A DNA stretch of 64,000 bases, from the NCBI GenBank assembly GCA_041738235.1, contig JBGSQF010000004.1:6215-70214 (forward strand). Reading direction: 5' to 3'. Numbering within the stretch: the first letter of the stretch is position 1; each line of letters opens with the position of its first letter. The notes beneath the pieces were generated by a model that was not told where the DNA came from, searched no databases, and saw only the letters and a program-made list of their open reading frames with translations. Both the position numbers and the translations under genes were made by a program. This document shows positions 10,050 to 61,961 of this stretch, one piece after another. Origin of the DNA: Minisyncoccia bacterium (GTDB lineage Bacteria > Patescibacteriota > Minisyncoccia > Moranbacterales > GCA-2747515).

Positions 10050-10213
10050 CCCCCTTGCCCGCCACAGGAACCTTGCAAAGAGAACTTGCAAGGCTCCTGT
10101 GGACACTTAGAACCTGCCCAAAATATTTCAACTGACAAATGCAAATATTTTTACTTTGAGATATTCTGAACCAGTTTTAAACTATTTGATTTTTCTCCCG
10201 AAGATGTTACCAT

Positions 10214-42618: not shown

Positions 42619-42630
42619 CCCTTATTAACA

Positions 42631-42715
42631 GCCGCGGTGGCGGAATTGGTAGACGCAAGGGACTTAAAATCCCTCGAATTAAACACTCGTGCGAGTTCGA
42701 GTCTCGCCCGCGGCA
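42631..42715 (+). tRNA. tRNA-Leu (anticodon TAA), long variable arm
   Basis: GCCGCGGTGGCGGAATTGGTAGACGC; the anticodon loop is AGGGA-CTTAAAA-TCCCT. It has a long extra arm, T-arm GCGAG-TTCGAGT-CTCGC, and 3' end CCGCGGC-A. Confidence 0.85.
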
Positions 42716-42748
42716 CAAAAAAGCCCCGATTCTCATCGGGGCTTTTCT
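42716..42748. terminator. bidirectional rho-independent terminator
   Basis: AAAAAA-GCCCCGAT-tctc-ATCGGGGC-TTTTCTT lies between the tRNA-Leu and the convergent 3D-domain gene. Confidence 0.75.
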
Positions 42749-44828: not shown

Positions 44829-44977
44829 GGGAACACTAATTTCTAAGGTTTTTGAAGGGATGGGCTATTGGTCGGTTCTTGTTTGGCCACTGCTCTTACC
44901 TCAAAGCCATCGAAAGGGAACAGCGTATCCGCACAGAAACGCCAGTTCAAAAAAAATCTTCCTCGTTCCTCACAGCA

Positions 44978-46078: not shown

Positions 46079-46252
46079 AGATCACAACCTACCTCTTTAA
46101 GAGAAAGCCTCTCCAACCACGAGAGGCTTTCTTGTACAAAGAACAAAAATTTTTCAGTAGTAAAGACTCCTCACACAGACAAAATATTATCCACAAACAT
46201 TCTTGGATAAAAGTAGCGTGTTTTACTTTTTTAGTGTATCCTATAAGAAGAT

Positions 46253-48592
46253 ATGTTTACACCTTTTATGTTTGCAAAAAAAAATAAAAAGATCGTTCTT
46301 TTGTTTTGCCTTTTTTCTGTTGCATTCTTTCTTCTCCCGATATCTTTTCCGGGAGATTTGTCTTTTTCTCATGGGGACGTTTTACTTACCGCATCCGCTG
46401 ATAACACCGGAAGCACGGGCACGAACGAGTACAAAGCGGAGTGGACTAGTCCAACGACCTGGATGATTAATTTCCTTTTGATGATCCAAGGATTCTTAGC
46501 CTACTTTCTCGATGGAGCCGTTTCACTCCTGACCAAATTCATAGACGCCACCCAAGTAAGATCATTTCTCAATAACTCCATACTCACCGATGTTTGGAAA
46601 GCTGTTCGTGATGTGTGCAACCTCGCGTTTATTCTCACGCTTCTTTTTTCCGCGTTCGCCACGATATTTCATGTAGAGAAATACCACATCAAGACCATTA
46701 TCGTGAAGTTGGTATTGATGGCCCTTCTTATTAACTTCAGCCTCCCCATCACGCGATTTATCACCGATACCGGGAATGTCCCCATGTACTATATGGCACA
46801 GGTCCTCTTTGGAAGCTCCTCCACCACTAATGTCGGGCAACAAATAGAACAACAATCCAACATTGTTTGTGCCATCGTGCCCTATTACGATGACTGCTAT
46901 CAAAGAACACAAATATCGGAGGCACAATATGGGACATCCCAACAAGATGACTCTTCCGTACTTTTCGCTTCGATCGCACTCTTATTCCTCTTCACTATCA
47001 CCATGTTCGTCCTGGCGATGCTTTTTTGCATACGAACAGTAGCGCTCGGAATTCTCATTATCTTTTCTCCACTAGGATTTATAGGAGTGGCTGTCCCGGC
47101 ACTCAATAAATATTCCAGTGAGTTCTGGGAGTCCCTTATCAAATATACGTTCTTCGGTCCAGTGATGCTCTTCGTACTGGCAGTGTCAGTAAAGCTCATG
47201 TCCGCTATGACCGCCCAAGCTCTGGATAACAAACTTTCTACCACCGGATTTACCGGTATCGTCAGCGCTATCGAAGCTGTCGCTACCCCGATCGTTATCC
47301 TCTGGATGGGTATGATGATAGCCCAAAAGGCCAATGTTGCCGGTGCCGGTGCCATCATCGGTATGGCCCAAAAAGTGGCGAAGATGCCGGTAAACTTTGC
47401 AGGGAAGATGGCAAAGGGCATTCCTATGAGCGTGGGGAGATTTGCAGACAGAAGACTTGCCAAAACGGGGCAACGCTGGTCTGAGAGTGGTAACAGACTC
47501 GTAAGAGGTCTAGGTATCGGTATGCGAACACTCAGCCCAACAGCGACCAAAAATGCCTTCAAGGCAATGGGGGAGAAAAGAGATAGAGAAGCCTTTGGTC
47601 GCGCATCCGCAGGAGCTGAAGATCTCTTTACTAGCATTCGAGATCATACCATAAGCGCTATTAATCCTTATGCTTACTGGAAAGGTGTCCAGGGCGCTAA
47701 AGGTGCTGGCGCAGGTGAAAAATGGAAAGGATTCAAAAAAGGTCTCTTCTACAATGTAGACAGAAATGATAGCCTCTACGAAGCAACGGAAAAAGAAGCG
47801 AGTGATGAATCAAAAAGCCTGCCTATGCAAAAATTTGATTATGTCTACAACGAATTTCAAAACGCGATGGATCGTGGGCAAGTACCGCGTGTTCACGGTA
47901 TGTTACGCGCAATGACAGAAAATAATGACCTGGTCAATGAATTTGTATTAAAACATGGAGCAGAGTTTGATGGTGGAAACAACGAAGTCAGCCCTGAAAA
48001 CGTCCGTCATGTACTTGACGAAGCGTATAAAAAAGCTGGTGTTCACGACGCCGAACAAAGAGCTAAATACATAATGACGCTAGGCGAGATCGGAACATCT
48101 AAAGGAAACTTTGCGCTCACCGGAATGACCGATGTAGACAAAGATGGCAAGTTCTTTACATACGGTCAAGATCAAAGAAGCAAGGAAAATCAGGCAAAAG
48201 CTGCAGCCGGAAAACTTATAAACATGGAGTCACAAGCACGAGCACGAACCATGCACCCCGATATTTTCTTCAATTATACCATGGTGCCAGACCCAAGTGA
48301 TCCAACAAAAGAAATGAAAAAATTCTCAGGAATATCTGAGGTCGGAAAAGAGATCTTAAAAAATCTCAAGGGAGATGACCTTCAGCAAATGGATAGAACC
48401 CGTGGAGACCTTAAAAAGATCATGGAGCAGTATGTGACACAAATATCTACATCTTCTAATCAAGCGGATAGGGACGATTTCAATGCCCTACCCAAGCTTC
48501 AGAGAGAGTACATCGTCGCAATGAGCCACATGTCACAAGGTAAACAAAAGGGTGACGCTATGACAGCTGCAACAAGCAGTTCTACCTTATAA
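46253..48592 (+). CDS. polytopic membrane protein with large C-terminal soluble domain; candidate VirB6/TrbL-like secretion-channel component
   Basis: 779 aa. It has 6-8 TM helices in the N-terminal 380 aa and a hydrophilic K/E-rich C-terminal half. The VirB6 assignment is from topology, size and context only. Confidence 0.45.
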   Translation: MFTPFMFAKKNKKIVLLFCLFSVAFFLLPISFPGDLSFSHGDVLLTASADNTGSTGTNEYKAEWTSPTTWMINFLLMIQGFLAYFLDGAVSLLTKFIDATQVRSFLNNSILTDVWKAVRDVCNLAFILTLLFSAFATIFHVEKYHIKTIIVKLVLMALLINFSLPITRFITDTGNVPMYYMAQVLFGSSSTTNVGQQIEQQSNIVCAIVPYYDDCYQRTQISEAQYGTSQQDDSSVLFASIALLFLFTITMFVLAMLFCIRTVALGILIIFSPLGFIGVAVPALNKYSSEFWESLIKYTFFGPVMLFVLAVSVKLMSAMTAQALDNKLSTTGFTGIVSAIEAVATPIVILWMGMMIAQKANVAGAGAIIGMAQKVAKMPVNFAGKMAKGIPMSVGRFADRRLAKTGQRWSESGNRLVRGLGIGMRTLSPTATKNAFKAMGEKRDREAFGRASAGAEDLFTSIRDHTISAINPYAYWKGVQGAKGAGAGEKWKGFKKGLFYNVDRNDSLYEATEKEASDESKSLPMQKFDYVYNEFQNAMDRGQVPRVHGMLRAMTENNDLVNEFVLKHGAEFDGGNNEVSPENVRHVLDEAYKKAGVHDAEQRAKYIMTLGEIGTSKGNFALTGMTDVDKDGKFFTYGQDQRSKENQAKAAAGKLINMESQARARTMHPDIFFNYTMVPDPSDPTKEMKKFSGISEVGKEILKNLKGDDLQQMDRTRGDLKKIMEQYVTQISTSSNQADRDDFNALPKLQREYIVAMSHMSQGKQKGDAMTAATSSSTL

Positions 48593-48615
48593 AAAACTAG
48601 AGACGTACAAATTCT

Positions 48616-50436
48616 ATGTTAGCCACTCCTCAAAATATTTCTTTTGCTTTGGAATTTGCTGATTCTGACTTGGCAATGAAAATCCTCAAAGAAACTCACT
48701 TTGGGGAATCTCTCCCAGTTGTTAACGGAATCGTAAATCACCGGTCTAAACTCCTTGCCACAGCATTTCCCGAACTGCCCGACAATCTCGCCACAGAAGT
48801 CATGCAAAGACACCTTCTTGAGTTCTATCGACTCGGAATATCCTTTCGCGATCACCTCACCAATCGATATCTTTTTCAAGGACGAGTAGTAAAGAATGAG
48901 CAACAGGCAATACTCCTCAAATCTATCCGACAAAATAGTGAGGTACTCGCAGGAAAAACGATAGGGGAGTGGGTTCACCTTTTTGATCAAATTTATCCCC
49001 CAGAAGAACGCACTCAGGAAGAGATCCTTCCATTTTGTACAAAGATACTCAAAGACTCGTCTCAGTCAGAGCAACAGATCGCTGTTCTCAAAGATATTTT
49101 GGGTGTTTATGAAACACTTTTAACCACTCAACTCATAGACATCATCGATACAACCCTTGCACTAAAAAACATACGAAGGGAAAAAGGTACCCCAGAACAA
49201 GATCTCCCCAACGTTCTTAGAAGGACCCCCTCAACACAAACTAAAAACTTAAATAACGATCTACCCCAATCTAGAGCGGAGACCCAGCAAAAAAATATGG
49301 TTCGACTCTCTCTCAAAAAAGCGGTTGAAAAGTATCCGAGGATCATGAACGAACGGGTTACGGATAGCGATATCGTTTTTCGAGGATCCGACGGACCCGT
49401 TATTCCGAGCGTAAAGAACTGGATCACGGCGTACCACCAAGAAATGGGGTCGGGGACACACGAACCCTATGAACGTAGTGAATTTTTGTTTCACAATAAA
49501 AGCGCAATGTCCCTTTCTCAGCGAGAACGCACTGTTTTGTCCGAAGTCCTTCGCTCCCTCGATGAAGAAAGCGAGCTTCCCATCAATCCAGAAACTCAGT
49601 CAATTGACCTTCTCCAACTAGAACAGCTTACTGTATCATCAACAAATACCTCCTCCCGACAGCTCTCAAAGCAAGAAGTTATTCTCCCTTCTGCTTCTAG
49701 CCAAAACATCCCAGCAGCGGAAAGATCGGCTGCTTCCCTCTATACGAGAGAGCCCATCGATGACCGAAAAGACGCCTGGCACACAGCTGACACACAAAAC
49801 GCAACACCTCGATCTTCGAAGTACCTACAAAACACCTCCTTTTCGCAAAACCTTACTGGTGGAATCGACCCACGGTCTCGCCAGAACCCAAGTCAGACAC
49901 TGCAACGACCATCTGCCGAAAATACCGCTCAAAATTGGCAGGATGCCAATGTAAAAAAACCTACAATAACCAACCCCAACCTGAAAAGCATTCAGATGGA
50001 AGAGAAACAGAAAGAGTGGGAAGCTCCCAGATCATTCCCCGCTCAGCCCCAAGTACCCCCCTTACAGGCAAGCCACCAACACGGACCGATCAACCCCACT
50101 GCCAGGATGCAGCAAACACCTCGCTCAGCCACACCCCTCCCTCAAACAGATCATTTGGACTACACCGACTATTATCCTATTCCCAAAGAACCGAAGCGCC
50201 CCACACAAAGCATCCCCTCAAATCTTTCCTTTTCGTCGCCACATACTTTCCCCGTAGAAAAAATAGAGAAACAGTCCCTTGCAGCAAGTGCGGTTTCTCG
50301 CGCAAGCCAACAGAACATCCCGAACAACCGTCCGCAACAACCCCAAAGACAGCCACTCTCCACAGCAAAAAATTCACAAAATCCCACACAAAACCTATCT
50401 CAGAAACAACAGCCGAAGCGAATGATCATTGGATAG
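48616..50436 (+). CDS. hypothetical protein with Q/P/S/T-rich low-complexity C-terminal half
   Basis: 606 aa. It has a structured N-terminal ~330 aa, then a disordered region rich in Q, P, S, T and N. Confidence 0.5.
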   Translation: MLATPQNISFALEFADSDLAMKILKETHFGESLPVVNGIVNHRSKLLATAFPELPDNLATEVMQRHLLEFYRLGISFRDHLTNRYLFQGRVVKNEQQAILLKSIRQNSEVLAGKTIGEWVHLFDQIYPPEERTQEEILPFCTKILKDSSQSEQQIAVLKDILGVYETLLTTQLIDIIDTTLALKNIRREKGTPEQDLPNVLRRTPSTQTKNLNNDLPQSRAETQQKNMVRLSLKKAVEKYPRIMNERVTDSDIVFRGSDGPVIPSVKNWITAYHQEMGSGTHEPYERSEFLFHNKSAMSLSQRERTVLSEVLRSLDEESELPINPETQSIDLLQLEQLTVSSTNTSSRQLSKQEVILPSASSQNIPAAERSAASLYTREPIDDRKDAWHTADTQNATPRSSKYLQNTSFSQNLTGGIDPRSRQNPSQTLQRPSAENTAQNWQDANVKKPTITNPNLKSIQMEEKQKEWEAPRSFPAQPQVPPLQASHQHGPINPTARMQQTPRSATPLPQTDHLDYTDYYPIPKEPKRPTQSIPSNLSFSSPHTFPVEKIEKQSLAASAVSRASQQNIPNNRPQQPQRQPLSTAKNSQNPTQNLSQKQQPKRMIIG

Positions 50437-50528
50437 CGATGCGAAACTTCTGTTTTGAACGTGAAACAAAATAATACGCAACTTTTTATGTTTTCGTTCG
50501 AGTTTCTTCTGCTATAAATCGTAATTCT

Positions 50529-50930
50529 TTGCGTATGCACGCTGATGTCCCACAATTTATCGATGTAGAAGATAAGATCGCCGGCCCACTTACCTGGAAA
50601 CAACTCCTCTGGATGATCGGACTACTCGTTCTTCTTATCATTCTCTACAACATCTTTACAGCTGGAGCCTTTATCATGATCGCTATCCCCGTATCTCTTA
50701 TTTTTGTGGCCTTTGCATTCATTAAGCCTTATGGACAACCCATGACAACATTTGTCTATTACGGGGTTATGCATCTCTTCGGACCAAAAATATATGTCTG
50801 GAAAAGAGAAGTTCGAACGATCGCAAAACCGGTACAAAAGCCCACCAACACAACAAAAAAAGGAAATGCAGTTTCAGCTCTCACCCTCGAAGACATAGAA
50901 TCCCTCGCACAAAGACTTGATAGAAAATAA
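50529..50930 (+). CDS. small two-TM membrane protein, PrgI/VirB3-like
   Basis: 133 aa. It has two adjacent TM helices (LLWMIGLLVLLIILYNIF / AFIMIAIPVSLIFVAFAFI) and lies immediately upstream of the VirB4 ORFs, as PrgI/VirB3 does. Confidence 0.45.
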   Translation: MRMHADVPQFIDVEDKIAGPLTWKQLLWMIGLLVLLIILYNIFTAGAFIMIAIPVSLIFVAFAFIKPYGQPMTTFVYYGVMHLFGPKIYVWKREVRTIAKPVQKPTNTTKKGNAVSALTLEDIESLAQRLDRK

Positions 50931-50964
50931 CAACCCTGACAAAATATTTTAGAAATGCTATACT
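50926..50964 (+). promoter_or_regulatory. promoter-like element (CTGACA-17-TGcTATACT extended -10)
   Basis: The -35-like hexamer is at 50926..50931 and the extended -10 TGCTATACT at 50956..50964, about 95 nt upstream of the VirB4 N-terminal ORF. Confidence 0.4.
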
Positions 50965-51061
50965 GTGTGCACATTCGGTAAGCCTATGTGAATTTGTTTT
51001 GTTACGTGATATACAAATATATTTTACGCCATCTCCACACAATAATTAAGTTTCTTATTCC

Positions 51062-51754
51062 ATGGAATCACTTCATTCATCAAAACTCGTAGAGGGAGGT
51101 AGTAAGCAACCAAGCACACTGCGATTCGTTGACGTCTCTGAGATCAGAGATGGTGTTGTTATGCTTCGCAATGGCTCTCTTCGAGCCATTCTGGGAGTTT
51201 CCTCTATTAACTTCGACCTCAAATCGACCGACGAACAGGAAGGTATTATCCTTCAATTCCAGGGATTTCTTAACTCTCTCGATTTCCCAGCACAATTTCT
51301 CATCACATCAAGACGTCTCAATATACAGCCATACCTAGAAACGCTCACCAAGCACGAATCAGGACAAACGAACGAACTTCTACGCATCCAGATCGCTGAA
51401 TATAAAGATTTTATAGAGAACCTCACGAAAGTCAGTAACATCATGTCCAAACGATTTTACGTTGTTGTTCCCTTTTTCCCCATTGAAGCCAGTAAGAAAA
51501 GCTTTTTTGACACTTTGTCCGCCGTTGTCAACCCGCAAAAGACGATCATCTATAAACAGGAGCTCTTCGAAACATATAAAAATCAGCTCTTCCAACGAGT
51601 GGAGCATATCTCTTCAGGACTTTCAGGAACCGGGCTCCGAATGATACTCCTAAAAACAGAAGAGGTTATCGAACTCCTTCACAACTCCTACAACCCAAAC
51701 CTTTTTGCCACCGATATATTAAAAGGTCTCGAAAATGTAGATGTAAAGATGTAA
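51062..51754 (+). CDS. VirB4/TrbE-family N-terminal domain as a separate ORF
   Basis: 230 aa. VirB4 N-domain-like: RFVDVSEIRDGVVMLRNGSLRAILGVSSINFDLKSTDEQEGIILQFQGFLNSLDFPAQFLITSRRLNI. It ends 64 bp before, and in a different frame from, the ATPase ORF. Confidence 0.7.
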   Translation: MESLHSSKLVEGGSKQPSTLRFVDVSEIRDGVVMLRNGSLRAILGVSSINFDLKSTDEQEGIILQFQGFLNSLDFPAQFLITSRRLNIQPYLETLTKHESGQTNELLRIQIAEYKDFIENLTKVSNIMSKRFYVVVPFFPIEASKKSFFDTLSAVVNPQKTIIYKQELFETYKNQLFQRVEHISSGLSGTGLRMILLKTEEVIELLHNSYNPNLFATDILKGLENVDVKM

Positions 51755-51818
51755 AAAACAAAAGATCCTCGAGTGAGGAAGTCCTAAAAGATACTTTTTC
51801 ATTGTCAAAAACAATCCT

Positions 51819-53630
51819 ATGTTTTTTAAGAAAAAAACCAACGATCAAAAAATACCCAAAGATCCTATTATGGCGAGCCACGCAGACTATGAAGCCGGTA
51901 TGGAAACGGTACGAAGCTTCATTGCCCCCTCAGCTATAGAATTTTCTCCAAACTACGTGCAAATAGGGGAGGTGTTTTCCAGAACACTCTTTGTGACCGC
52001 TTATCCAAAATACCTCAGCACAGGCTGGTTCTCTCCGATCATCAATATCGACTTTTCTATGGACATTGCGATGTTCGCAAGTCCTATGGAAACGACCGAG
52101 GTTCTCAAAAAACTTCGAGACTCAGCGGCACAGCTTAACTCACAGATACGAATCGAGCAAGAATCGGGACAAGTACGAGACCCCGTCAAAGAGTCAGCCC
52201 TCGAAAACGTTGAGCGTCTCCGCGATGGACTTCAGGAAGGAACAGAGCGCTTCTTTCGTTTTGGTCTCTATATCACTCTCTATGGAAAGACCAAAGAAGA
52301 ACTTGATGAGATCACAAGGAAACTTGACGCCATATTGGAAGCCCAGATGGTCTACGTAAAACCGACCGTCCTTCGCATGAACCAGGGATTTTCGTCAACG
52401 CTGCCTCTCGGAAACGATGAACTCAACCTCTGCAATAACCTTAATACCACACCGCTTTCCACCACATTTCCCTTTATTTCCTCAGAACTTTCTTCCAATG
52501 AAGGAATTTTGTACGGCATAAACCGACACAATAATAGTTTGGTCCTTTTTGACCGTTTCAACCTGGAAAATGCGAATATGACCATATTCGCCAAATCTGG
52601 AGCGGGAAAAAGCTATGCCGTCAAACTAGAACTTCTCCGATCTATGATGCTCGGCACGAATATCTGCATCATCGACCCGGAAAACGAATATAAACACCTT
52701 TGCGAGGCCGTAGGAGGAAGTTTTATCTCCATCTCCCTTAACTCCAGAAGTCATATCAATCCATTCGATCTCCCTAAAATAAGCGACGAGACCGACCCTG
52801 CCGACATGTTTCGAAGCCATATCGCTACACTCATTGGCCTCCTTCACCTTATGTTAGGCCGTGTGACGCCTGAGGAAGATTCGATCCTTGACCGAGCTAT
52901 ACGTGAAACATACGCCATACGAGACATAACCCCAGAATCCAACCTCAAAGCCATTGGTACCGAACAAGTCCCAACCATAACCGACCTATACAATGTTTTA
53001 CAAAACATCGAAGGAGCAGAGTCCCTCTCAGCAAGACTTGAGAAGTTTACCGAAGGGGTTTTTTCTGGGTTTCTCAATCACCCCACAAACGTAAGTTTTG
53101 AAAATCAAATGATCGTTTTTAATATCCGCGACCTTGAAGAGGAGTTAAGACCGATCGCTATGTATGCCGTTTTGCAGATCATCTGGAATGCGATGCGATC
53201 AGAGCTCAAAAAACGCCTTTTGGTCGTAGACGAAGCATGGGTCATGATGCAAAATGAGGACGCTGCCTCATTTCTCTATGGGATAGCCAAACGCTGTCGA
53301 AAATATTACACAGGCCTCACCACTATCACCCAGGATATTTCCGACTTTATGAACTCTCGCTATGGAAAGCCGATCGTCAACAACTCTTCCCTCCAGATAC
53401 TTCTCAAACAATCCCCCTCATCGGTAAATGTCATTGCGGATACCTTTTATCTCACAGATCAAGAAAAATTTTTGCTCTTGGAGTGCAATGTGGGAGAGGG
53501 AATATTCTTTGCTGGAGCCAAACATGTGGCCATAAAAGTCATTGCTTCTTATTCCGAAGATCAGATCATCACCTCAGATCCAAGACAGCTTCTCGAGATC
53601 GAAGAGGCCAAAAAAGAGCTTGAGGGATAG
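51819..53630 (+). CDS. VirB4/TrbE/CagE-family secretion ATPase (C-terminal ATPase part)
   Basis: 603 aa. It has Walker A IFAKSGAGKSYAVK and Walker B LLVVDEAWVMM. The total with the preceding ORF (833 aa) matches the length of full-length VirB4. Confidence 0.85.
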   Translation: MFFKKKTNDQKIPKDPIMASHADYEAGMETVRSFIAPSAIEFSPNYVQIGEVFSRTLFVTAYPKYLSTGWFSPIINIDFSMDIAMFASPMETTEVLKKLRDSAAQLNSQIRIEQESGQVRDPVKESALENVERLRDGLQEGTERFFRFGLYITLYGKTKEELDEITRKLDAILEAQMVYVKPTVLRMNQGFSSTLPLGNDELNLCNNLNTTPLSTTFPFISSELSSNEGILYGINRHNNSLVLFDRFNLENANMTIFAKSGAGKSYAVKLELLRSMMLGTNICIIDPENEYKHLCEAVGGSFISISLNSRSHINPFDLPKISDETDPADMFRSHIATLIGLLHLMLGRVTPEEDSILDRAIRETYAIRDITPESNLKAIGTEQVPTITDLYNVLQNIEGAESLSARLEKFTEGVFSGFLNHPTNVSFENQMIVFNIRDLEEELRPIAMYAVLQIIWNAMRSELKKRLLVVDEAWVMMQNEDAASFLYGIAKRCRKYYTGLTTITQDISDFMNSRYGKPIVNNSSLQILLKQSPSSVNVIADTFYLTDQEKFLLLECNVGEGIFFAGAKHVAIKVIASYSEDQIITSDPRQLLEIEEAKKELEG

Positions 53631-53677
53631 ATGATCCATCTTCATGCTGAACAAGATTTTCACCAAAATGTGTTTTT

Positions 53678-54202
53678 ATGCGCGATGCCGCTCAACAAAT
53701 GGTCGCGAGTCGGCTCCAGCAGGCAAGATCCGACTCGCTTAATGCCTCACAAGAAAGCGCCTCCCAAACAGGGGCGGTTCAAGCCGCCGAAGAAACTGCC
53801 ACAGAAGTAGTAAAAGCAGGTAGAAAAGGTCCTATCGCGATAGCAAAAGCTGCCGCCACACTTGCTTTTCGGCATAGAAAAAAAATTCGAGATGGTGAGC
53901 TTGGGGTGTTTATCGTACCTCTTACTTTTGCGATCTCAAAAGATGGCGTTCTCGATCTTATTCCCATCTTTGGAAAAGTGTTCGGGCTTTTTATAACATT
54001 TTACCTTTTCGTTTTTCTCTGGGGACGCGGAACATGGAAATGGAAGGTGCTTCGCACAATACTTCTTCTCTTCGATGCCTTTGTCCCCTTTTTGAGCATT
54101 CTTCCCTTCACAACTTTCTGCGTCGCCATAACCTACGGACACGCGAAAGCAGATGCAGAAAAAGCAAAAAATGAGCTCAAACGCCTTGGAGTGACCACTT
54201 AA
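53678..54202 (+). CDS. small membrane protein, unknown function
   Basis: 174 aa. It has an A/Q-rich N-terminus and 3 TM in the C-terminal half. Confidence 0.45.
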   Translation: MRDAAQQMVASRLQQARSDSLNASQESASQTGAVQAAEETATEVVKAGRKGPIAIAKAAATLAFRHRKKIRDGELGVFIVPLTFAISKDGVLDLIPIFGKVFGLFITFYLFVFLWGRGTWKWKVLRTILLLFDAFVPFLSILPFTTFCVAITYGHAKADAEKAKNELKRLGVTT

Positions 54203-54285
54203 AACACTCGATGAGAAGGAATCCTTTCTGCACACGCTTCTTTTGTTTTTCCTCTTCTCGAATACACAAAAATGCTCTATACTAG

Positions 54286-54927
54286 ATGTATATGTTACAA
54301 CAAAAAACAAAAAACATTTTTCTTGGGTCGATAGCGCTTATAAGTATTGCCGGGGCATTCCTTTTTCCTGCACACGATCTCTTTCAAACATTCCTTGCGG
54401 GAATTGCTTTCCTGATCATCTTCCCTTATTTAACAATAAAGTTCGTTCTCAAAGAATCTGTTAAGCAATACGGCCTCACATTTCCCCAATTTAACAAAAA
54501 ACTCTTTCTCCAATTTGGTTCACTCTTTCTCATATCTCTGGGTCTTTTCTTTATACTCTTCTCTTATACACCACTTGGAAAGCACTATTTTCCACCAACG
54601 TTCCTCACACAAAGATTTTTTTTCTTCTTTCTGTACAGCATTCTCGTTGGGGGAACCTTTTCTCTTATTTTTAGCGCTTTTTTTCAGGGATTTCTTCTCT
54701 TTTACTTTGAACGACTATGCAAAGAATGGGCCATCCTTCTTCAATGGTTTTGCTTTATGCTCTTTCTTTTTATAGCAGGTGATTGGGGATGGAACATGAC
54801 CCTCTACATATACATCTCCTTATTTTCTGGAGCGCTGGCCTACATCTCACGATCATTTCTCACGAGTTTTATCTTTACCTGGATCTTTGTTATACTAGCA
54901 GATATGTTTCTTTTAAAATTCTTCTAA
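54286..54927 (+). CDS. polytopic membrane protein, unknown function
   Basis: 213 aa with 6 predicted TM. There is no conserved CAAX-protease motif. TATACTAG sits immediately upstream at 54277. Confidence 0.5.
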   Translation: MYMLQQKTKNIFLGSIALISIAGAFLFPAHDLFQTFLAGIAFLIIFPYLTIKFVLKESVKQYGLTFPQFNKKLFLQFGSLFLISLGLFFILFSYTPLGKHYFPPTFLTQRFFFFFLYSILVGGTFSLIFSAFFQGFLLFYFERLCKEWAILLQWFCFMLFLFIAGDWGWNMTLYIYISLFSGALAYISRSFLTSFIFTWIFVILADMFLLKFF

Positions 54928-54932
54928 CCTCT

Positions 54933-57719
54933 ATGTTTTTCAAAAAGAAAACGCTTCTTGCAGGAATTCTCATTTTACAACTCTTTTTTACCAATACCGC
55001 TTCTGCTGACTGGTTCAATATTGGTAACTGGCCAAGTGTTGATGAGGTCGCCAGTCAGATCGAACAGCGCTACCATGTTAATACTGGATCCGTTCAAAAT
55101 CTAGGTGAGACGATGAACGTGTCCTCACAAAAAGAAACCGCACCCGAAGTAATGCTCTTTTTCTCTCCCAGTAATCCTGTCCCCGGAAAAGAAATTACTG
55201 CACAAGCAAATCCTGTTTACTTCAGTAATAGCACAGAACAGCTCTACTATACCTGGTACATCAAGCACAAGGACTGCGATAAAGACTCAAGTGTCAGTAA
55301 CGGAGATAGCAATAAATACTGTGATGTTGATGATGATGGAGATGTTGATGAAAAGGACTGGAAGATCGAAGCGATGCGAACGATCGCCAATAGCGGATTT
55401 GACACCAACCGAGCCGATTACAGCCAAAACACCGACAACGACGGTTATAAAGCTCGCTGGGGAGGCGATGAAAATACCAATATACCTGAACACTGTTACA
55501 TCCAAGACTTTAGTTCAGGAACCCTCTATGAATTTGCCAGTGGGTCTGAAAGCACCAGTTACGGTTGCGGGGCGGGACAAGTGGCACGCTGTGTCAAAAA
55601 TACCAACATTACCTGTACTGAGGATGCTCCCAATCCTTTCGACCCGCCAATAGAAAATACGTACGGAGTATGTCAGAACACCGGACAGGCCCCTCTTTGT
55701 TTTAATACCAGTGTTGTTTGCGAAGGGTCTTCCCTCGATCCAACCCTAACTCCAATGTGCGTTCCCTCGGGGTATGCCACACCCACCTGCACAGACTCCA
55801 ATCTCGATTCCTCACTCTGTGCACAAGTGGGAACACCAATTACCTCCTGCTCGCTCAATACCTCAAATGTAAGTAATGGTTGTAATCACCTCTTCCCTAA
55901 TGCCCCGGGAGATACTACTGGAGATGGAACTTTTGGTCTCAGTGAGGAAAAATTTTGGCAAACAAACCCTCAAGATCCCGACACGGCAGATACCGGGCAC
56001 GGGGACGAGGCCAATGTTGCCGGTCTTGGACAAGACACTTTTACCTGGAACTACGAAGTGGGAGACAAGGTGGGAGTAGTTGTTGAAGGAACCTCCATTA
56101 TCACCACGAAACATGACGATCGCTCTTATGCGATAATGTGGGCGCTTCCCAAAAATGATTGCCCCATCCAAAATGCTTCTTCTTATCGCCAAACTATACG
56201 AGGGTATGATGTGACTTTTTACACCACGACCACCAACATTAACGACTGTCTCGAAAAAAACCTCGTCGACCCGAGAGAGGGGGGCCAAACAGGAAAACTC
56301 GGGATCTCTCTTGATTACACCCCAAACACACCCTTCAACGATGCCTCCGGAGATGATTTTGGAACCACCCTTAATGTATTTAGCTCTCTCCAAAACCCAG
56401 AAAGCTCCAAAGACACGATCCGCTACGAATGGACCGTTGCCATAAGCAGAGATGGCACATTCAACCCCCGCGGGTACAGTGCCGATGAAGCAAGAGATAC
56501 AACAGGGGGACAGGGCTGGCGCGATATTACGAGTTTCCTTCGTGACAATAAACTCATTGATTTTACTCAAGGAAATGGGGTGGATAATATAAACATCAAG
56601 CTCAACCTCACCAATGAGCGCCTTGCCGATCTATCCACCAATATCGCAACTCTTTTTCCTGGAGAAACGGGGTATCTCAAAGTAACCGCGAGAGCTATAG
56701 AGTATGTTAGTCTTGATGAAGCTGCCCGAGAAGACACTGCGTCCGTCGTTATTCCCGTCACCTCTACCGATCGATACATATCCGCAAAAGGTGTTTCAGT
56801 TTCCGATGGCAAGCTCTCTCTTGGAGATGCGATCTGCGAGGAAAGGGTCGACGAGCAAACCAACCCCCTAGGAATTGGAAGAAACCTTTGTTTAGTAGCA
56901 AAAAATGAGATCATTGGACTAACCGTCAATAACACCAGTAATCTTACAGATTTTCAGTGGACCTCAAACGGACAACCTCTTAATTGCACCAATGATATGT
57001 CCTCTAATTGTTCCAATACATCCGCCACCAGCACAAACTTTCTCCCTATCATCGACGATTCCGGAAAAACCTACGAGGTGTCCCTTACGGCCATTAACGC
57101 CGAAACAGGAAAGAAAATCACCGTTTCCCGGACCTTCCTCATCGTTGATCCCACTGTAAAAATACGCTCTAACAATAGAGAACTTGCATGGCCAAAATAC
57201 CTTGGTTATTACAAAGGGACCGACGGTTACGCCTATGCCGACTATAGCGACGATGAGTTTCAGGGGTATCCTGGGGTAGCCCCCACTTTCTCCGTAGAAT
57301 TTATACCAAGTTGGATACAAAACCGAGCAAAATGGGAATGGTTTTTTAATGGAAATTCCATCGCAAAAGATATTCTCGAGGTAGGATTTCCCCTCGACGG
57401 TTCCCCTGGTGATGTGGTAAGCCTCTCAGTCAATGGTTTTTCTCTCGAAGATGACGCTATCCGCACTGCCCTTAAAACATTCTGGGACTATTCTGTGTTC
57501 GAAAGCACAGAACACACACTATCCCATAAGATCGATGTCCAGACTGTCCAAGGAGAAGCAGAAGAAACAGCTATGAGCTCACCAAAAGCCTTCTTCGCCG
57601 CTATCGCAAAAAATGTCTCTGGGCAGATCCTCTTCGTGGTTCAACTTTTCCTCTGGGTAGGAACTCTCATCGTTCTCTTGGGAGGTATATTCGCTCTAAG
57701 TGGATGGAATCGACGATAG
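54933..57719 (+). CDS. large Cys-rich secreted surface protein with C-terminal TM anchor
   Basis: The start was trimmed to ATG 54933 (MFFKKKTLLAGILILQLFFTNTASA, a signal peptide); the track starts at 54783. It is about 929 aa with many Cys and D/N/T-rich segments (DVDDDGDVDEKD). The C-terminal TM is ILFVVQLFLWVGTLIVLLGGIFAL. Confidence 0.6.
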   Translation: MFFKKKTLLAGILILQLFFTNTASADWFNIGNWPSVDEVASQIEQRYHVNTGSVQNLGETMNVSSQKETAPEVMLFFSPSNPVPGKEITAQANPVYFSNSTEQLYYTWYIKHKDCDKDSSVSNGDSNKYCDVDDDGDVDEKDWKIEAMRTIANSGFDTNRADYSQNTDNDGYKARWGGDENTNIPEHCYIQDFSSGTLYEFASGSESTSYGCGAGQVARCVKNTNITCTEDAPNPFDPPIENTYGVCQNTGQAPLCFNTSVVCEGSSLDPTLTPMCVPSGYATPTCTDSNLDSSLCAQVGTPITSCSLNTSNVSNGCNHLFPNAPGDTTGDGTFGLSEEKFWQTNPQDPDTADTGHGDEANVAGLGQDTFTWNYEVGDKVGVVVEGTSIITTKHDDRSYAIMWALPKNDCPIQNASSYRQTIRGYDVTFYTTTTNINDCLEKNLVDPREGGQTGKLGISLDYTPNTPFNDASGDDFGTTLNVFSSLQNPESSKDTIRYEWTVAISRDGTFNPRGYSADEARDTTGGQGWRDITSFLRDNKLIDFTQGNGVDNINIKLNLTNERLADLSTNIATLFPGETGYLKVTARAIEYVSLDEAAREDTASVVIPVTSTDRYISAKGVSVSDGKLSLGDAICEERVDEQTNPLGIGRNLCLVAKNEIIGLTVNNTSNLTDFQWTSNGQPLNCTNDMSSNCSNTSATSTNFLPIIDDSGKTYEVSLTAINAETGKKITVSRTFLIVDPTVKIRSNNRELAWPKYLGYYKGTDGYAYADYSDDEFQGYPGVAPTFSVEFIPSWIQNRAKWEWFFNGNSIAKDILEVGFPLDGSPGDVVSLSVNGFSLEDDAIRTALKTFWDYSVFESTEHTLSHKIDVQTVQGEAEETAMSSPKAFFAAIAKNVSGQILFVVQLFLWVGTLIVLLGGIFALSGWNRR

Positions 57720-57760
57720 ATCCCTGCACAAAAATTTTAAACTCTGATATTGTCTGTCTC

Positions 57761-58897
57761 ATGGCAAAAAAGTTTTTTATTGGCTCCTCCGTATTTCTCC
57801 TTGTCCTCCTTTCCCTGTGGGGTATTTATAATTTGTTTTTTGCCCAAAAAGAGACCTCGAAAGCATCTCCGGATGTCCCCACAACTGAAACACCAAAAAC
57901 CGAGATAAAAAAATCCACCGCGATCCAGATAGCCATCGACACACCCATACTTTCTCCATCAATATCTTCCGACGGAGATGGATCAATCCTCTACATCGAC
58001 AAAAACACCGGTTCATTGCAAAAACTTGATCTGGCTTCCGGGAAAAAAGAGGTCTTGTCCGATATAACGCTCACCTCTCCAATAAGCGCTATTTGGAAAA
58101 CAAATGGCACAGCAGCGATCGCGAAGGAATTCCGATCGAATGAACCCTCTTTTCGCCTCATATCTTTTGTAAACTCTGTCCCTCCAGCCTTACTCAAATG
58201 GGGTATTCGCTACCTCATCTGGGACGAACTTGAAAACAACATCATCTATACTTATCAAGATGCTGCTGGAAAAATGACCCTAAATCGCGCTCTCCCGGAC
58301 GGATCTGAGTGGAAAGAGCTTGAAAAACTGCCCTCAACGCCAGTGTTCATACAATCGATCCCCAAATCCCCCCTCATTGCTCTCTGGGAAAGACCGGCGA
58401 ACAACCGCGTAGGGGAACTCAAGACCATCAACATCACCAATGGGGAGACAAAAACGCTCTTTCCCGGAAAATATGGGGCCAACTATCTCTGGTCACCCAA
58501 TGGGGAGAACATTCTTCTCAGCTGGGCACCCGAAAAAAACAAATCGAGAATAACCTTAGCTATGATCAATAAGAATGGGGGTGAATATACCGACCTCAAC
58601 TTTCCTACCCTTGTAGAAAAGTGTGTTTGGCTTAACGACAACAAGACAGTGTACTGTGCCCTCCCCGGATCGCTCTCACAGACAGCCGTCATGCCCGATG
58701 ATTTTTATGGACAATCCTTCTCGAGTAGTGACACTTTCTGGAAGATCGACACAGAAACAGGAAAATCAGAGAGGATCGTGGCCTTGGAAGATATGTCTGA
58801 ATCATTTGATGCCGTTACTCTTTTGGTCTCTCCGGACGAATCCAAGTTGTTTTTTGTAAATCGAAAAGATAACAAGCTCTACTCGATTCAGTTATAG
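57761..58897 (+). CDS. membrane-anchored beta-propeller-like (TolB/DPP-IV N-terminal-like) protein
   Basis: The start was trimmed to MAKKFFIGSSVFLLVLLSLWGIY (TM). Repeated beta-strand-rich segments occur with W/D spacing (YLIWDELENN, LWSPNGEN, VWLNDNKTVY, LLVSPDESKLFFVN). Confidence 0.5.
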   Translation: MAKKFFIGSSVFLLVLLSLWGIYNLFFAQKETSKASPDVPTTETPKTEIKKSTAIQIAIDTPILSPSISSDGDGSILYIDKNTGSLQKLDLASGKKEVLSDITLTSPISAIWKTNGTAAIAKEFRSNEPSFRLISFVNSVPPALLKWGIRYLIWDELENNIIYTYQDAAGKMTLNRALPDGSEWKELEKLPSTPVFIQSIPKSPLIALWERPANNRVGELKTINITNGETKTLFPGKYGANYLWSPNGENILLSWAPEKNKSRITLAMINKNGGEYTDLNFPTLVEKCVWLNDNKTVYCALPGSLSQTAVMPDDFYGQSFSSSDTFWKIDTETGKSERIVALEDMSESFDAVTLLVSPDESKLFFVNRKDNKLYSIQL

Positions 58898-58906
58898 CTG
58901 TGTACT

Positions 58907-60031
58907 ATGAAAAAATCTTTCCTATTTTTTTCCATACTATTGGCTGTGTTTTTTGTTCCCTCATCCACCTTCGGTTTAGGAAATACAACAACCTGTCAAA
59001 CTACCCTCAGCTACTATAGAGCGTGTGTCTATGGTGGCACAGCCTGTTCAACTGGTTGGACAGAATCCTCTCTCGCCTGTTCAAACAATACCGCTGGAGA
59101 AACTGGAAAATGTTGTGAAAAAAGCACACAAACAACTTCCACCGGAAACCCAAGCTCTACAACCACATCTACCTCCGCTTCCTTCACTTACACTCCCCTT
59201 GAAGAGATCCCGGGACAAGGAACTACAAGTGACCTTTCTTCCTACATAAAGGGACTCTATTCTTTTAGTATCTTCTCTGTGGGAATAGCAGCCCTTCTTA
59301 TGGTGATCATAGGTGGGTTTATCTACGTAACGGCAGCAGGGAACACCTCGAATGTAGACAAAGGGAAGGAATATATAAAAGATGCCTTTTTTGGAATACT
59401 TATAGCCTTCGGATCGTATCTTATATTGTACGTCATCAATCCAGATCTAGTGAATGTCGATCTGAGCAGCTTAAGCAAGTTAGCAATGGTAGGGGGAAGT
59501 GGATCATCCTACACTGAACAAAGTACCCCCGTTAAGGGATCCGGAAATGGTACATGCGACCCGGTGCCAAGCGGATCTTGCTCTGTAGAGTCACTTAAAA
59601 GCACCTGTCTCGCATCAAATGCAGAGGCGTTTTCTCGCCTATGTAACAAGGAAAGTGCGGGCGCAGTAAACTCCTCAAGTGGAGTTGATATCTGCTCCAA
59701 TTATGGAAATGCGAGTTTTTCTGGAGGACTCTTCCAAATCAATGTTTTTTCAAATGGAAGCATGCTTGGGGACTCCCGCTGTAATAATTTGGGAAGCAAA
59801 GGCACCTGCGCCAACAGAAGAGCAAGTGACGGAGTATGTCTTGGTTGGAACTGCCAATTAACTGCTGGAAATGCTAATGACCTCAATTATTGTATGGGTC
59901 TCACAAAAACAGCAGATAAAAATATTTCTGTAGCCTGTCAACTCTCCGGAAACGGCGTCAACACAACCCCCTGGGCGTGCAGCGCCAACAAATGCGGACT
60001 CGGCGGCACATCAAGCTCTTTCTGTAAGTAA
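58907..60031 (+). CDS. secreted Cys-rich protein containing a VirB2/TrbC-pilin-like two-helix hairpin (paralog 1)
   Basis: 374 aa. It has a signal peptide, a Cys-rich N-domain and a T/S linker. The hairpin follows: LYSFSIFSVGIAALLMVIIGGFIYV (TM1) - TAAGNTSNVDKGKEYIKDA (short loop) - FFGILIAFGSYLILYVI (TM2). A Cys-rich C-terminal domain of about 190 aa follows. Confidence 0.6.
   Translation: MKKSFLFFSILLAVFFVPSSTFGLGNTTTCQTTLSYYRACVYGGTACSTGWTESSLACSNNTAGETGKCCEKSTQTTSTGNPSSTTTSTSASFTYTPLEEIPGQGTTSDLSSYIKGLYSFSIFSVGIAALLMVIIGGFIYVTAAGNTSNVDKGKEYIKDAFFGILIAFGSYLILYVINPDLVNVDLSSLSKLAMVGGSGSSYTEQSTPVKGSGNGTCDPVPSGSCSVESLKSTCLASNAEAFSRLCNKESAGAVNSSSGVDICSNYGNASFSGGLFQINVFSNGSMLGDSRCNNLGSKGTCANRRASDGVCLGWNCQLTAGNANDLNYCMGLTKTADKNISVACQLSGNGVNTTPWACSANKCGLGGTSSSFCK
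59163..59480. repeat. ~320-bp near-identical direct repeat, copy A (pilin-like hairpin-coding segment)
   Basis: It matches 61111..61430 at about 85-90% identity, including a 58-nt identical run CCACATCTACCTCCGCTTCCTTCACTTACACTCCCCTTGAAGAGATCCCGGGACAAGG. Confidence 0.85.
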
Positions 60032-60049
60032 ATTTTCATTTACAAGTTT

Positions 60050-60532
60050 ATGTCTTTTTTCAAAAAAACCCTTCTTTTTACAGCACTTTTTCTTATTATC
60101 TTTGGAGTTATTGCATACCTCTTTCTCAAAAAGACCTCCCCATCAAACACAACCCCAAAACAAACAGAGGAAACAATACAACTTAATAAACAAATAGAGT
60201 CTACCGTCCTTCCAGAAGCCCAACTGATTGACAAAGGCACTTACCTCATACAGGAAGGGAAACAAGAAGCCAATTCTCCAAATCCAGATTATTCGATATA
60301 CTATTTTCAAGAAACAGGACAATATAGTATCGTTCTTCTCAAAACCCCCCTCGAAGAAACTAGAAAAGAAGCGGAAGAAGCTTTCCTAAAACAGGTCGCG
60401 GCATCCGGCGTTACAAAACAAGATGCATGCAAACTCTTTGTCACCGTTCAAACCATAGCAAGTGTCGACGAGATAAACTCTGGAAGAAATTTTGGACTCA
60501 GTTTTTGCCCAAATGCCAAAAACTTCGATTAG
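60050..60532 (+). CDS. small N-terminally anchored secreted protein, unknown function
   Basis: 160 aa with an N-terminal TM (LLFTALFLIIFGVIAYLFL) and no motif. Confidence 0.45.
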   Translation: MSFFKKTLLFTALFLIIFGVIAYLFLKKTSPSNTTPKQTEETIQLNKQIESTVLPEAQLIDKGTYLIQEGKQEANSPNPDYSIYYFQETGQYSIVLLKTPLEETRKEAEEAFLKQVAASGVTKQDACKLFVTVQTIASVDEINSGRNFGLSFCPNAKNFD

Positions 60533-60644
60533 TAAAGGGCCTTTTAAAAAATTCTTCTCTGCTCTATTCGTCAAAATCCTTTGTTTTGTTACAATATTAA
60601 CCAGCTATAGCCAACTAAAAGATCCTTCTTTAAATACCCTTTTG

Positions 60645-60659
60645 TGCTATACTAGTATC
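60645..60659 (+). promoter_or_regulatory. extended -10 / palindromic TATACTAGTAT element upstream of pilin-like paralog 2
   Basis: TGcTATACT is at 60645..60653, and the palindromic core ATACTAGTAT is shared with the 30525 palindrome. Confidence 0.45.
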
Positions 60660-60689
60660 ATTAATAAAATATATTTTATTTATCCTTCC

Positions 60690-61961
60690 ATGACCAAGAG
60701 CCTACTTCCAAGAAAGATGTTCCTCCTCTTTTTTATTTTCTCCTGTTTCGTTTTTCTGCCAAGTCTGTGTCATGGGGTCGTGGAAACGCCAGTTCCCTCA
60801 GTGGACTGTGAGAATCCTTCAATTTGGGGAGGAAGTTGCGGAGGAGTATGCGGACAAGGACGAAAATCAGTAGGAGTATGTACTGGAAATTTAACCGGTG
60901 GCTGGTGCTGCGTCACAAGCGAGCAATACGATAAACTTGCAGAACAAGGAAAGGTACCCAAAGAAACGCCAACATCAACAGGAACCGATGAGTGCCAAAA
61001 GAACGGGGGAACTTGTAGCCAAAGCTGTTCCGGTATAGGGGCCGCTTACGGAAATTGCGAAAACGGACCGCCGGTTGTGTATTGTTGCCAAAAAAATAGC
61101 ACGTCTACATCCACATCTACCTCCGCTTCCTTCACTTACACTCCCCTTGAAGAGATCCCGGGACAAGGCATAACAACCGACCTTTCCTCGTATATAAAAG
61201 GGCTCTACTCCTTTGCAATATTCTCTGTAGGGATAGCAGCCCTTCTCATGGTGATCATAGGTGGGTTTATCTACGTAACGGCGGCAGGGAATACCTCAAA
61301 TGTAGATAAAGGGAAAGGATATATTCGCGATGCTCTTATTGGGATACTTATCGCCTTTGGATCCTACCTCATCCTCTACGTGATCAACCCGGACCTGGTA
61401 AATATTGATCTGAGCAACTTAAATAAGCTCTCTCTTTCCGGAGGAGTGGGCTCCACTGGATCGACCGGATCAGGAACGGGCGGTTCAGGAAGTGCAACCT
61501 CAAACCCAGGAACCTGCGGGGGTATAAAGGTCCAATCAGGAACGGCAGGATGTTCACTAGCCTCAGGTGATCTTGGTGGAATGCTCTCCTGCATGGTGGG
61601 GAAGGGAATAAATAACTACTCCGGATACGTCTACTCCGTCACTTCCAATGCCACCGGAGATAACAAAGAGGCTTCTGCTGCTTGCTGCGGAAACGGACAC
61701 TCTGCAAAATGCCCTCATAGTAATACAAGTTGTCATCACGGATGTACAATGTCAGACAAGGGAAGCTCTTACTCGGTTGACTATTTGACCACCAGCCTTT
61801 CAGACACACAGATCTGCGAAGTAGTAGATATTGCCATAGCTTGCGGCGCAACTACCAGTGGAAATATCTGGGGACCCAAAACCATGTGTAACGGAAAGGT
61901 CCATTACGCAAGTGGCCATGGCAACCACCTCCACATCCCTACGAGTAGCTGTGGTCACTAA
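60690..61961 (+). CDS. secreted Cys-rich protein containing a VirB2/TrbC-pilin-like two-helix hairpin (paralog 2)
   Basis: The start was trimmed to ATG 60690 (MTKSLLPRKMFLLFFIFSCFVFLPSLCHG, a signal peptide); the track starts at 60492. It has the same SASFTYTPLEEIPGQG...LYSFAIFSVGIAALLMVIIGGFIYVTAAGNTSNVDKGKGYIRDALIGILIAFGSYLILYVINPDLVN block as paralog 1. The Cys-rich N- and C-domains differ. Confidence 0.6.
   Translation: MTKSLLPRKMFLLFFIFSCFVFLPSLCHGVVETPVPSVDCENPSIWGGSCGGVCGQGRKSVGVCTGNLTGGWCCVTSEQYDKLAEQGKVPKETPTSTGTDECQKNGGTCSQSCSGIGAAYGNCENGPPVVYCCQKNSTSTSTSTSASFTYTPLEEIPGQGITTDLSSYIKGLYSFAIFSVGIAALLMVIIGGFIYVTAAGNTSNVDKGKGYIRDALIGILIAFGSYLILYVINPDLVNIDLSNLNKLSLSGGVGSTGSTGSGTGGSGSATSNPGTCGGIKVQSGTAGCSLASGDLGGMLSCMVGKGINNYSGYVYSVTSNATGDNKEASAACCGNGHSAKCPHSNTSCHHGCTMSDKGSSYSVDYLTTSLSDTQICEVVDIAIACGATTSGNIWGPKTMCNGKVHYASGHGNHLHIPTSSCGH
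61111..61430. repeat. ~320-bp near-identical direct repeat, copy B
   Basis: See copy A (59163..59480). The two copies are 1948 bp apart in direct orientation. Confidence 0.85.

Follow-up and report, generated by a model that had tools for sequence, protein, structure and literature searches.

Two genes at the end of a Patescibacteria type IV secretion-like cluster share a homogenised pilin module and carry different, putatively wall-degrading domains

Two neighbouring genes, here named A and B, lie in a stretch of 64,000 nucleotides (nt) from a contig of a Minisyncoccia bacterium (Patescibacteriota); this whole 64-kb stretch is referred to below as the window, and all positions are counted from its first letter. 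Both genes encode exported proteins in which a nearly identical hydrophobic hairpin, related to the pilins of type IV secretion systems (T4SSs), is set between an N-terminal cysteine-rich region and a C-terminal cysteine-rich domain, and a small gene separates them. The features of the locus, all on the + strand, are as follows (aa, amino acids; TM, transmembrane).

58907-60031, + strand: gene A, open reading frame (ORF) of 374 aa, with signal peptide, one 6-Cys module, Ser/Thr linker, pilin module, Gly/Ser linker and lysozyme-like domain
58994-59116, + strand: 6-Cys module of A, residues 30-70, spacing C-x9-C-x6-C-x10-C-x10-CC
59156-59483, + strand: DNA repeat copy 1, putative gene-conversion tract, with perfect runs at 59163-59220 and 59300-59334
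59183-59467, + strand: pilin module of A, residues 93-187, with YTPLEEIPG motif, TM helix 1, loop AAGNTSNVDKGK, TM helix 2 and INPDLV
59543-60028, + strand: C-terminal lysozyme-like (SLT_3-type) domain of A, with 14 Cys and the putative catalytic Glu249 (59651-59653) in CNKES, followed by SGGLFQIN
60050-60532, + strand: small gene between A and B, 160 aa, with N-terminal TM anchor and an outer domain of about 120 aa ending in LSFCP
60690-61961, + strand: gene B, 423 aa, with signal peptide, two 6-Cys modules, Ser/Thr linker, pilin module, Gly/Ser linker and LAS-like domain
60807-61088, + strand: 6-Cys modules of B (60807-60911 and 60993-61088), residues 40-74 and 102-133, the second spaced C-x6-C-x3-C-x9-C-x8-CC
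61104-61431, + strand: DNA repeat copy 2, putative gene-conversion tract, offset by 1948 nt from copy 1
61131-61415, + strand: pilin module of B, residues 148-242
61503-61958, + strand: C-terminal LAS-peptidase-like domain of B, residues 272-423, with 12 Cys

Gene A has orthologues of 53-64% identity in syntenic loci, and orthologues of gene B (P0019, P0030, P0031) were likewise found in syntenic loci. The full ORF of gene B spans 60492-61961 and its public gene call (P0010) is of 482 aa, beginning about 59 codons upstream of the ATG at 60690; the extra 5' part (60492-60689) runs over the 3' end of the small gene and takes in an AT-rich, promoter-like spacer at 60568-60595. Translation from the ATG at 60690 gives an N-terminal signal peptide, as in the B orthologues, and this codon is probably the best start, the public one being mis-called.

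Hydropathy analysis gives each protein a signal-peptide-like N-terminus and two hydrophobic segments (residues 114-147 and 159-182 in A, 168-202 and 211-237 in B), as a preliminary description of this DNA had expected of them. Cysteines are confined to the outer domains, six plus 14 in A and 12 plus 12 in mature B, in even numbers throughout, and the block shared by the two proteins has none. The domain sizes given in that description were roughly right: the N-terminal part has about 70 aa in A and about 115 aa in B, and the C-terminal part has about 180 aa with linkers included, the Cys-rich domain itself taking up about 150-160 aa in each protein. Such an arrangement is consistent with a topology in which both outer parts are extracellular and the pilin loop is intracellular. 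Anchoring as lipoproteins was considered and rejected, as inspection of the sequence showed the leader Cys to be without a lipobox.

The repeat shared by A and B was assessed by comparing the DNA of the two genes. Both the near-identical stretch of about 320 bp and the perfect run of 58 nt that had been proposed were found, with an identity of 83.7% across 59162-59473 versus copy 2, slightly under the 85-90% that had been claimed. The 58-nt run lies at 59163-59220 and a second one, of 35 nt, at 59300-59334; runs of at least 58 nt arose in just 7 of 20000 shuffles of the codon columns. The DNA flanking the repeat is at background identity (13-37% per 30-nt window). At the protein level the block quoted at the time is indeed found in both products, and the blocks of A and B are 91% identical. 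We rejected an assembly artefact as the source of the repeat, since the copies differ at 16% of sites and their flanks are unique.

The hairpin had been proposed to be a T4SS pilin module, and this holds, although for the window's own proteins by a transitive route. The only family match of the shared block is PF18895 (T4SS_pilin), with 22.6 bits for A, 19.8 for B and 25.6 for the A module alone, against a gathering cut-off of 26.6. The orthologue P0002 reaches 32.7 bits and thus passes the cut-off, and PF18895 is matched by 23 of 28 A-type and 22 of 28 B-type relatives. A word-indexed search for homologues of the hairpin only gave 11 candidates that were scored. Five stand-alone pilins of 113-144 aa (P0086-P0090), one of which carries the name Candidatus Moranbacteria, are 46-58% identical to the module and cover 80-95% of it; three of the five pass the PF18895 cut-off with 28-34 bits, and the other two fall just under it. 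A local hidden Markov model (HMM) recovers the module with E values of 6e-44 in A and 3e-43 in B, and finds it in these two proteins only across the 64 kb. The modules of A and B are thus members of PF18895 through their orthologues and the stand-alone pilins. In four of the five small pilins (P0086-P0089), the mature protein runs from a YxPMEKLPG motif to just past INPDLVNV; since these limits match those of the module, A and B include a whole pilin extended at both ends via low-complexity linkers.

Other pilin profiles were less informative. The preliminary description had likened the hairpin to TrbC/VirB2 pilins, and PF04956, the profile of that family, has no match in A or B; a few relatives do match it, the two best, both B-type, at 1.9e-4 and below the cut-off, while P0086 gives an E value of 0.33. 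The module has no sequence match among solved VirB2/TraA chains, and the sole match of the B family profile in the PDB is the transmembrane hairpin of HtrII (E 0.16), a generic helical hairpin. A weak match (E 0.003) to the 'pilin-like conjugal transfer protein' family of Mycoplasma integrative and conjugative elements fits a monoderm affinity of the system. With their large flanking domains, A (374 aa) and B (423 aa) exceed the canonical TrbC/VirB2 precursor, which has about 70-130 aa. This had been regarded as exceptional; we found, however, that many Patescibacteria PF18895 proteins carry extra domains, so extended pilins are no exception in this family.

The C-terminal domain of A probably has a lysozyme-like fold, and would be expected to cut glycan strands. 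PF18896 (SLT_3) is matched by 18 of 28 family members, at best with an E value of 1.1e-5 and 26.2 bits against a cut-off of 27. The family conserves the motifs E-S-x-G and S-x-G-L-F-Q, with E50, S51, G75, L76, F77 and Q78 each at least 90% conserved in the A-domain alignment (A3); Glu-Ser and Gly-Leu-Phe-Gln are what we take to be the two signature motifs of family-1 lytic transglycosylases. The same position is occupied by a classical SLT domain in the relatives P0032, P0043, P0045 and P0057, and the A-slot protein of the locus L006 bears an SLT-like domain of the classical kind, with a match to a phage endolysin-domain family at 2.2e-8. An AlphaFold2 (AF2) model of the A domain (predicted local distance difference test, pLDDT, of 90.5) places the Glu at the end of a helix at 37-51 and shows a long beta-hairpin insertion. 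The Foldseek lists for this model are enriched in lysozymes and SLT proteins; the top matches are DslA, a lysozyme of Bdellovibrio, then a C-type lysozyme and SLT proteins of phages, none of them significant (E 0.26-4, TM-score at most 0.41). Aligned by hhalign with four SLT-positive relatives, the A-type domains pair their motifs correctly but weakly (P 0.015), and a phmmer search of the domain against PDB sequences gave nothing meaningful. Weak matches to pancreatic ribonucleases (A3 profile versus the PDB, E 0.016) show a high compositional bias due to Cys spacing, and no ribonuclease came up in either fold search; kinship with RNase A was thus rejected.

The C-terminal domain of B is rarer. 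An exhaustive search of 1.84 billion proteins returned only 29 representatives, and every full-length relative among them bears the pilin module. The domain has no match in Pfam, NCBIfam, PHROG or PDB sequences. An alignment of 28 sequences contains 13 invariant columns, among them H72, C77, H78, G80, C81, S89, D93, H139, H142 and H144, that is, in protein numbering, H343, C348, H349, G351, C352, S360, D364, H410, H413 and H415; the invariant residues H349, D364, H413 and H415 are of the His/Asp/H-x-H ligand type and stand in the order of the LAS family. In the AF2 model (pLDDT 92.3, predicted TM-score 0.88) a strand with S-x-x-x-D, a helix, a strand and a strand with H-x-H follow each other as in the LAS core, collinear with hedgehog and DD-peptidases. 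The best PDB matches in Foldseek are nearly all LAS proteins (MepA, the Streptomyces zinc DD-peptidase 1lbu, hedgehog N-domains, Ply500 and VanXYc), at TM-scores of 0.28-0.45 and E values of about 1, none significant. In an hhalign comparison with the hedgehog N-domain, whose sequence (ShhN) was entered by hand, the stretch SCHYGC...AVD...helix of B falls on SLHYEGRAVD...helix (P 0.058); a variable insertion in the B domain breaks the usual S-x-H-x-x-G-x-A-x-D motif. These features point to a LAS-like zinc hydrolase, an assignment that we consider probable, with a putative peptidoglycan peptidase activity.

It had been proposed that the outer domains of A and B are diverged copies of one variable Cys-rich domain, perhaps diversifying or receptor-binding. 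The C-terminal domains are instead two unrelated, conserved, enzyme-like folds, SLT_3 versus LAS-like, constrained and orthologous across genomes, which fits hydrolases better than variable binding modules.

The history of the pilin modules was followed in five syntenic genomes, namely the window and the loci L001, L002, L006 and L007. Within each genome, the DNA of the A and B modules compares as follows.

Window: identity 0.83, longest perfect run 58 nt
L001: identity 1.00, longest perfect run 353 nt
L002: identity 1.00, longest perfect run 326 nt
L006: identity 0.85, longest perfect run 108 nt
L007: identity 0.97, longest perfect run 74 nt

Across genomes, the module DNA is only 0.54-0.72 identical. 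The number of synonymous substitutions per synonymous site (dS) is 0-0.03 within L001 and L002 and about 0.9 in the window pair, and it is saturated across genomes. The C-terminal domains show 64-70% aa identity across genomes for the A type and 40-45% for the B type, and those of A cannot be aligned with those of B. Because the A and B modules are alike within a genome and far apart across genomes, their sequences bear the signature of recurrent gene conversion limited to the pilin module and its linkers; gene conversion had been suggested from the two copies in the window, and the cross-genome comparison now demonstrates it. Purifying selection alone was rejected as the cause of the DNA identity, as synonymous sites are identical inside L001 and L002 and saturated across genomes. 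In a further locus, L003, the A-type enzyme domain is 72% identical and sits on a different pilin subtype, so pilin modules have also been swapped.

Genes A and B close a cluster that resembles a monoderm-type T4SS, and the link to a T4SS that had been drawn is borne out by this position. The cluster upstream of A contains the following genes.

44852-58897, + strand: T4SS-like cluster upstream of A
44852-46078, + strand: LysM+CHAP hydrolase, opening the cluster
46253-48592, + strand: polytopic protein of 779 aa, VirB6-like candidate, without family match
48616-50436, + strand: protein of 606 aa, without family match
50529-50930, + strand: PrgI/VirB3-like protein
51062-51754, + strand: TrsD-like protein
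51819-53630, + strand: VirB4-like ATPase
53678-54202 and 54286-54927, + strand: two small membrane proteins
ending at 57719, + strand: Cys-containing surface protein of 929 aa with C-terminal anchor, without family match
57704-58897, + strand: N-terminally anchored protein of 397 aa, without family match

Most of the large proteins of the cluster have no family match whatever. The gene order of the cluster through A, the small gene and B recurs in L001, L002, L006 and L007, and is thus found in five genomes with the window. Envelope-polysaccharide genes (Wzy_C, glycosyltransferases) lie downstream of A and B; Wzy_C genes follow B on the opposite strand in L001, L002 and L007, the loci for which that flank was recovered. 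Patescibacteria T4SSs have been described as monoderm-type with an origin-proximal layout, which the cluster of the window matches (PMC12102498), and a comparable T4SS is essential in Southlakia epibionticum (PMC10633639).

Taken together, these data lead us to propose that A and B are a pair of peptidoglycan hydrolases tethered to the T4SS by their pilin modules, a reading to which we assign a probability of about 0.6. In this scenario a Sec signal peptide would export the N-terminal 6-Cys module or modules, the two pilin helices would cross the membrane with their short basic loop inside, and the C-terminal enzyme domain would be outside again, disulfide-bonded. A would cut glycan strands in the manner of a lysozyme or lytic transglycosylase and B would cut peptide stems or cross-links, so that the two together could supply the glycosidase-plus-peptidase activity which the VirB1-like hydrolases PrgK and TraG supply in Gram-positive T4SSs. 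The pilin module would place both enzymes at the site of T4SS or pilus assembly, and the machine might thereby cross the bacterium's own wall, the wall of its host, or both. Gene conversion repeatedly makes the pilin segments alike, whereas the segments for the enzymes and Cys modules follow separate orthologous lines of descent. The likely reason for the homogenisation is that both proteins would have to fit one partner, which may be the T4SS platform, the other protein of the pair or a pilus lattice, and the restriction of conversion to the pilin module suggests that this module is the part that must match the shared partner.

Several observations weigh against this proposal. Both window proteins are under the Pfam cut-off for PF18895, the A domain of the window does not match SLT_3 at an E value of 0.01, and neither the A domain nor the B domain has a sequence-level match to any solved chain, of lysozymes and of LAS proteins, respectively. 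The cluster already has a separate LysM-CHAP hydrolase. The module pair of the window is merely 84% identical with a dS of about 0.9; the last conversion events here are either old or were short patches, and much of the identity between the proteins is explained by purifying selection. Finally, in the distant genome L005 (Patescibacteria group bacterium) a B-type and an A-type fusion are adjacent and their modules share 56-65% DNA identity. As diverged modules stand side by side in this genome, homogenisation is not needed for function; the pairing is old and the homogenisation lineage-specific.

The alternative that survives best is that A and B are true pilus subunits, whose pilin modules polymerise, alone or with stand-alone pilins, into a VirB2-type filament that displays the hydrolases and 6-Cys modules on its surface or tip, as a wall-drilling pilus aimed at a host; gene conversion would then keep the subunits compatible with one lattice. 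The embedded module indeed corresponds to an entire mature stand-alone pilin, with the YxPxExxPG motif at one end and INPDLV at the other, and A-type genes adjoin arrays of small pilins in other genomes. In F-type pilins both termini face outward from the pilus, and epitopes fused to the C-terminus of F-pilin can be displayed, which counts in favour of such a filament. Moreover, pilin arrays are essential in a cultured relative (PMC10633639). The window and its cluster hold no stand-alone pilin gene, which would make A and B their only pilin-like products, although this absence covers the window only and not the remaining 45 kb or so of the 108.9-kb contig and the other contigs. On the other hand, a VirB2-type helical lattice would hardly have room for subunits that each carry 7-12 kDa at one end and about 18 kDa at the other, and the diverged modules of L005 coexist. 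We therefore regard this alternative as doubtful, and a VirB2-type conduit or filament co-assembled from the A and B modules and bearing a lysozyme-like enzyme, a zinc peptidase and defensin-like 6-Cys modules as an equally tentative idea.

A second alternative is that the hairpin is a mere two-helix membrane anchor and that A and B are ordinary autolysins, which serve the growth and division of the cell's own wall and lie beside a T4SS by chance, their DNA identity being neutral. Conversion between close direct repeats requires no selection, the downstream genes concern envelope polysaccharides, and A-type genes also occur far from VirB4 (L003, L008). However, the anchor is a complete member of the T4SS pilin family rather than a generic hairpin, the order from VirB4 to A, small gene and B is retained in five genomes, the A-type genes away from VirB4 adjoin pilin arrays, and every full-length B-type domain found bears a pilin module, which makes this explanation improbable. 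It is very unlikely that the outer domains are variable binding or antigenic modules, or toxins (defensin-like peptides plus lytic enzymes) that act against a host for nutrient release rather than in T4SS assembly: the number (1 to 4) and sequence of the 6-Cys modules do vary among genomes, some of them match beta-defensin profiles, and a role in weakening host envelopes has been suggested for lytic transglycosylases in Patescibacteria (PMC11665869), but the C-terminal domains are not hypervariable, being conserved and orthologous with invariant residues of catalytic type, the two kept transmembrane helices argue against free secretion, and the modules of the window itself lack a defensin match. 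Both of these last explanations are less likely than a T4SS-tethered pair, given the shared gene order, the link with pilin arrays and the conservation of catalytic-type residues.

The proposed pair of T4SS-tethered hydrolases can be set against several known systems. The VirB2-like pilins of Patescibacteria (PF18895; arrays of Southlakia epibionticum ML1 and Nanosynbacter TM7x) share with A and B the two-helix module with its conserved loop and the setting in a T4SS cluster of the monoderm type, which in a syntenic relative lies close to the replication origin (PMC12102498); they differ in that the module of A and B is set between a 6-Cys region and an enzyme-like domain. The module copies of A and B are 91-100% identical per genome, unlike the published arrays, whose pilins have a mean identity of 25% and a maximum of 54% (PMC12102498). 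VirB1-like hydrolases (PrgK of pCF10, TraG of pIP501, TcpG, CD419) are likewise membrane-anchored and encoded in T4SS clusters, and combine a glycan-cleaving lysozyme/SLT domain with a peptide-cleaving one (PMC12102498), activities that are predicted for A and B. Here, in contrast, the two activities would be split over two proteins, the anchor is a pilin module and not a single TM helix, the peptidase of B would be LAS-like and not of the CHAP or NlpC-P60 type, and the domains are disulfide-rich; family profile searches gave no sequence match of A or B to the VirB1, TrsG and CD419 families.

The A domain resembles PF18896 SLT_3 and PF01464 SLT in its Glu-Ser followed by a G-L-(F/M)-Q motif, and differs from them in that the window's domain is below any threshold, has 14 Cys and carries the long beta-hairpin insertion of the model. 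The B domain has, like the LAS metallopeptidases (M15: 1lbu, VanXY, Ply500; M74: MepA; hedgehog N-domain), invariant His, Asp and His-x-His on collinear elements, and unlike them a motif-splitting insertion, 12 Cys, no profile match and only 29 representatives. Concerted evolution of bacterial paralogues by gene conversion is known from tufA/tufB, and recombination between pilE and pilS from Neisseria. As in these cases, the A and B modules are closer within a genome than orthologues are across genomes, and have long perfect tracts; unlike in these cases, the tract is confined to one internal domain of otherwise unrelated multidomain genes, and the exchange homogenises rather than diversifies.

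None of the literature searched describes pilin-hydrolase fusions, the B-type domain or the concerted evolution of pilin modules, and PF18895 proteins are treated as pilins in published work. Pfam already has T4SS_pilin and SLT_3, and database annotations include proteins with both PF18895 and SLT (P0032), so the A-type architecture is implicit in the databases. In a survey of Patescibacteria, VirB2-like pilins were present in most genomes and VirB1-like hydrolases in few, and other glycosidases were suggested for their role (PMC12102498). If our proposal is correct, A and B would fill this VirB1-like gap with wall-cutting domains fused straight to pilin modules; owing to this architecture, VirB1 profile searches would miss them and pilin searches would tally them simply as pilins. 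The B type adds a rare LAS-like domain that has no Pfam model and was seen solely as a pilin fusion, and the pair offers a clean natural case in which gene conversion is limited to a single internal domain of genes that are otherwise unrelated. The T4SS is essential for epibiotic growth in the one Patescibacteria species tested, and its role has been called completely unknown (PMC11665869; PMC10633639). Should the pilus itself turn out to be armed with the enzymes, an ultrasmall epibiont would bore through the cell wall of its host, gene conversion would be the mechanism that keeps two armed subunits lattice-compatible, and this essential and functionally unexplained machine would gain a concrete role in breaching the host envelope.

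The N-terminal modules have a six-cysteine framework which resembles that of beta-defensins (e.g. C-x6-C-x3-C-x9-C-x8-CC). One isolated orthologue module scores 25.1 bits against Defensin_beta (PF00711; cut-off 21), with further modules below the cut-off, and another orthologue module matches Defensin_beta_2 (E 0.007); the three 6-Cys modules of the window have no defensin match. The number of such modules ranges from 1 to 4 among genomes (e.g. L002 10001-11323, L001 11714-13033), and in L005 they are placed after the pilin module. Between the small gene and B in L007, a 111-aa ORF (9792-10127) consists of a leader and one Cys module only, and resembles the first module of the window's B with the linker that follows it; it may be a gene fragment or a free-standing module.

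The small gene invariably follows the A-type gene, in seven loci, even where a B-type gene is missing, and its product has two conserved Cys. No match to this protein was obtained among families, PHROG, NCBIfam or PDB profiles; it may serve the lysozyme-like protein as a partner, inhibitor or chaperone.

In L003 (12116-15837) and L008 (9711-12014), an A-type fusion and the small gene are followed by arrays of four to six small pilins and by longer proteins in which Cys-rich regions are combined with one or two pilin modules; VirB4 is not nearby, and the A-type protein of these loci uses another pilin subtype (PCG...CTLCHL). At 268-4141 of L001 the VirB4-like gene is seemingly split into several short ORFs beside IS110-family and Y1 transposase genes, which suggests either that the T4SS ATPase is disrupted or that the assembly is at fault.

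Gene B of L002 is followed, about 8 kb further on, by dnaA, and from this syntenic relative the window is probably near the replication origin as well. GC skew is negative in every 2-kb bin of the 64-kb window but one, with a cumulative value of -5.5, and clusters of tRNA genes are found at 6032-6667 and 42548-42716.

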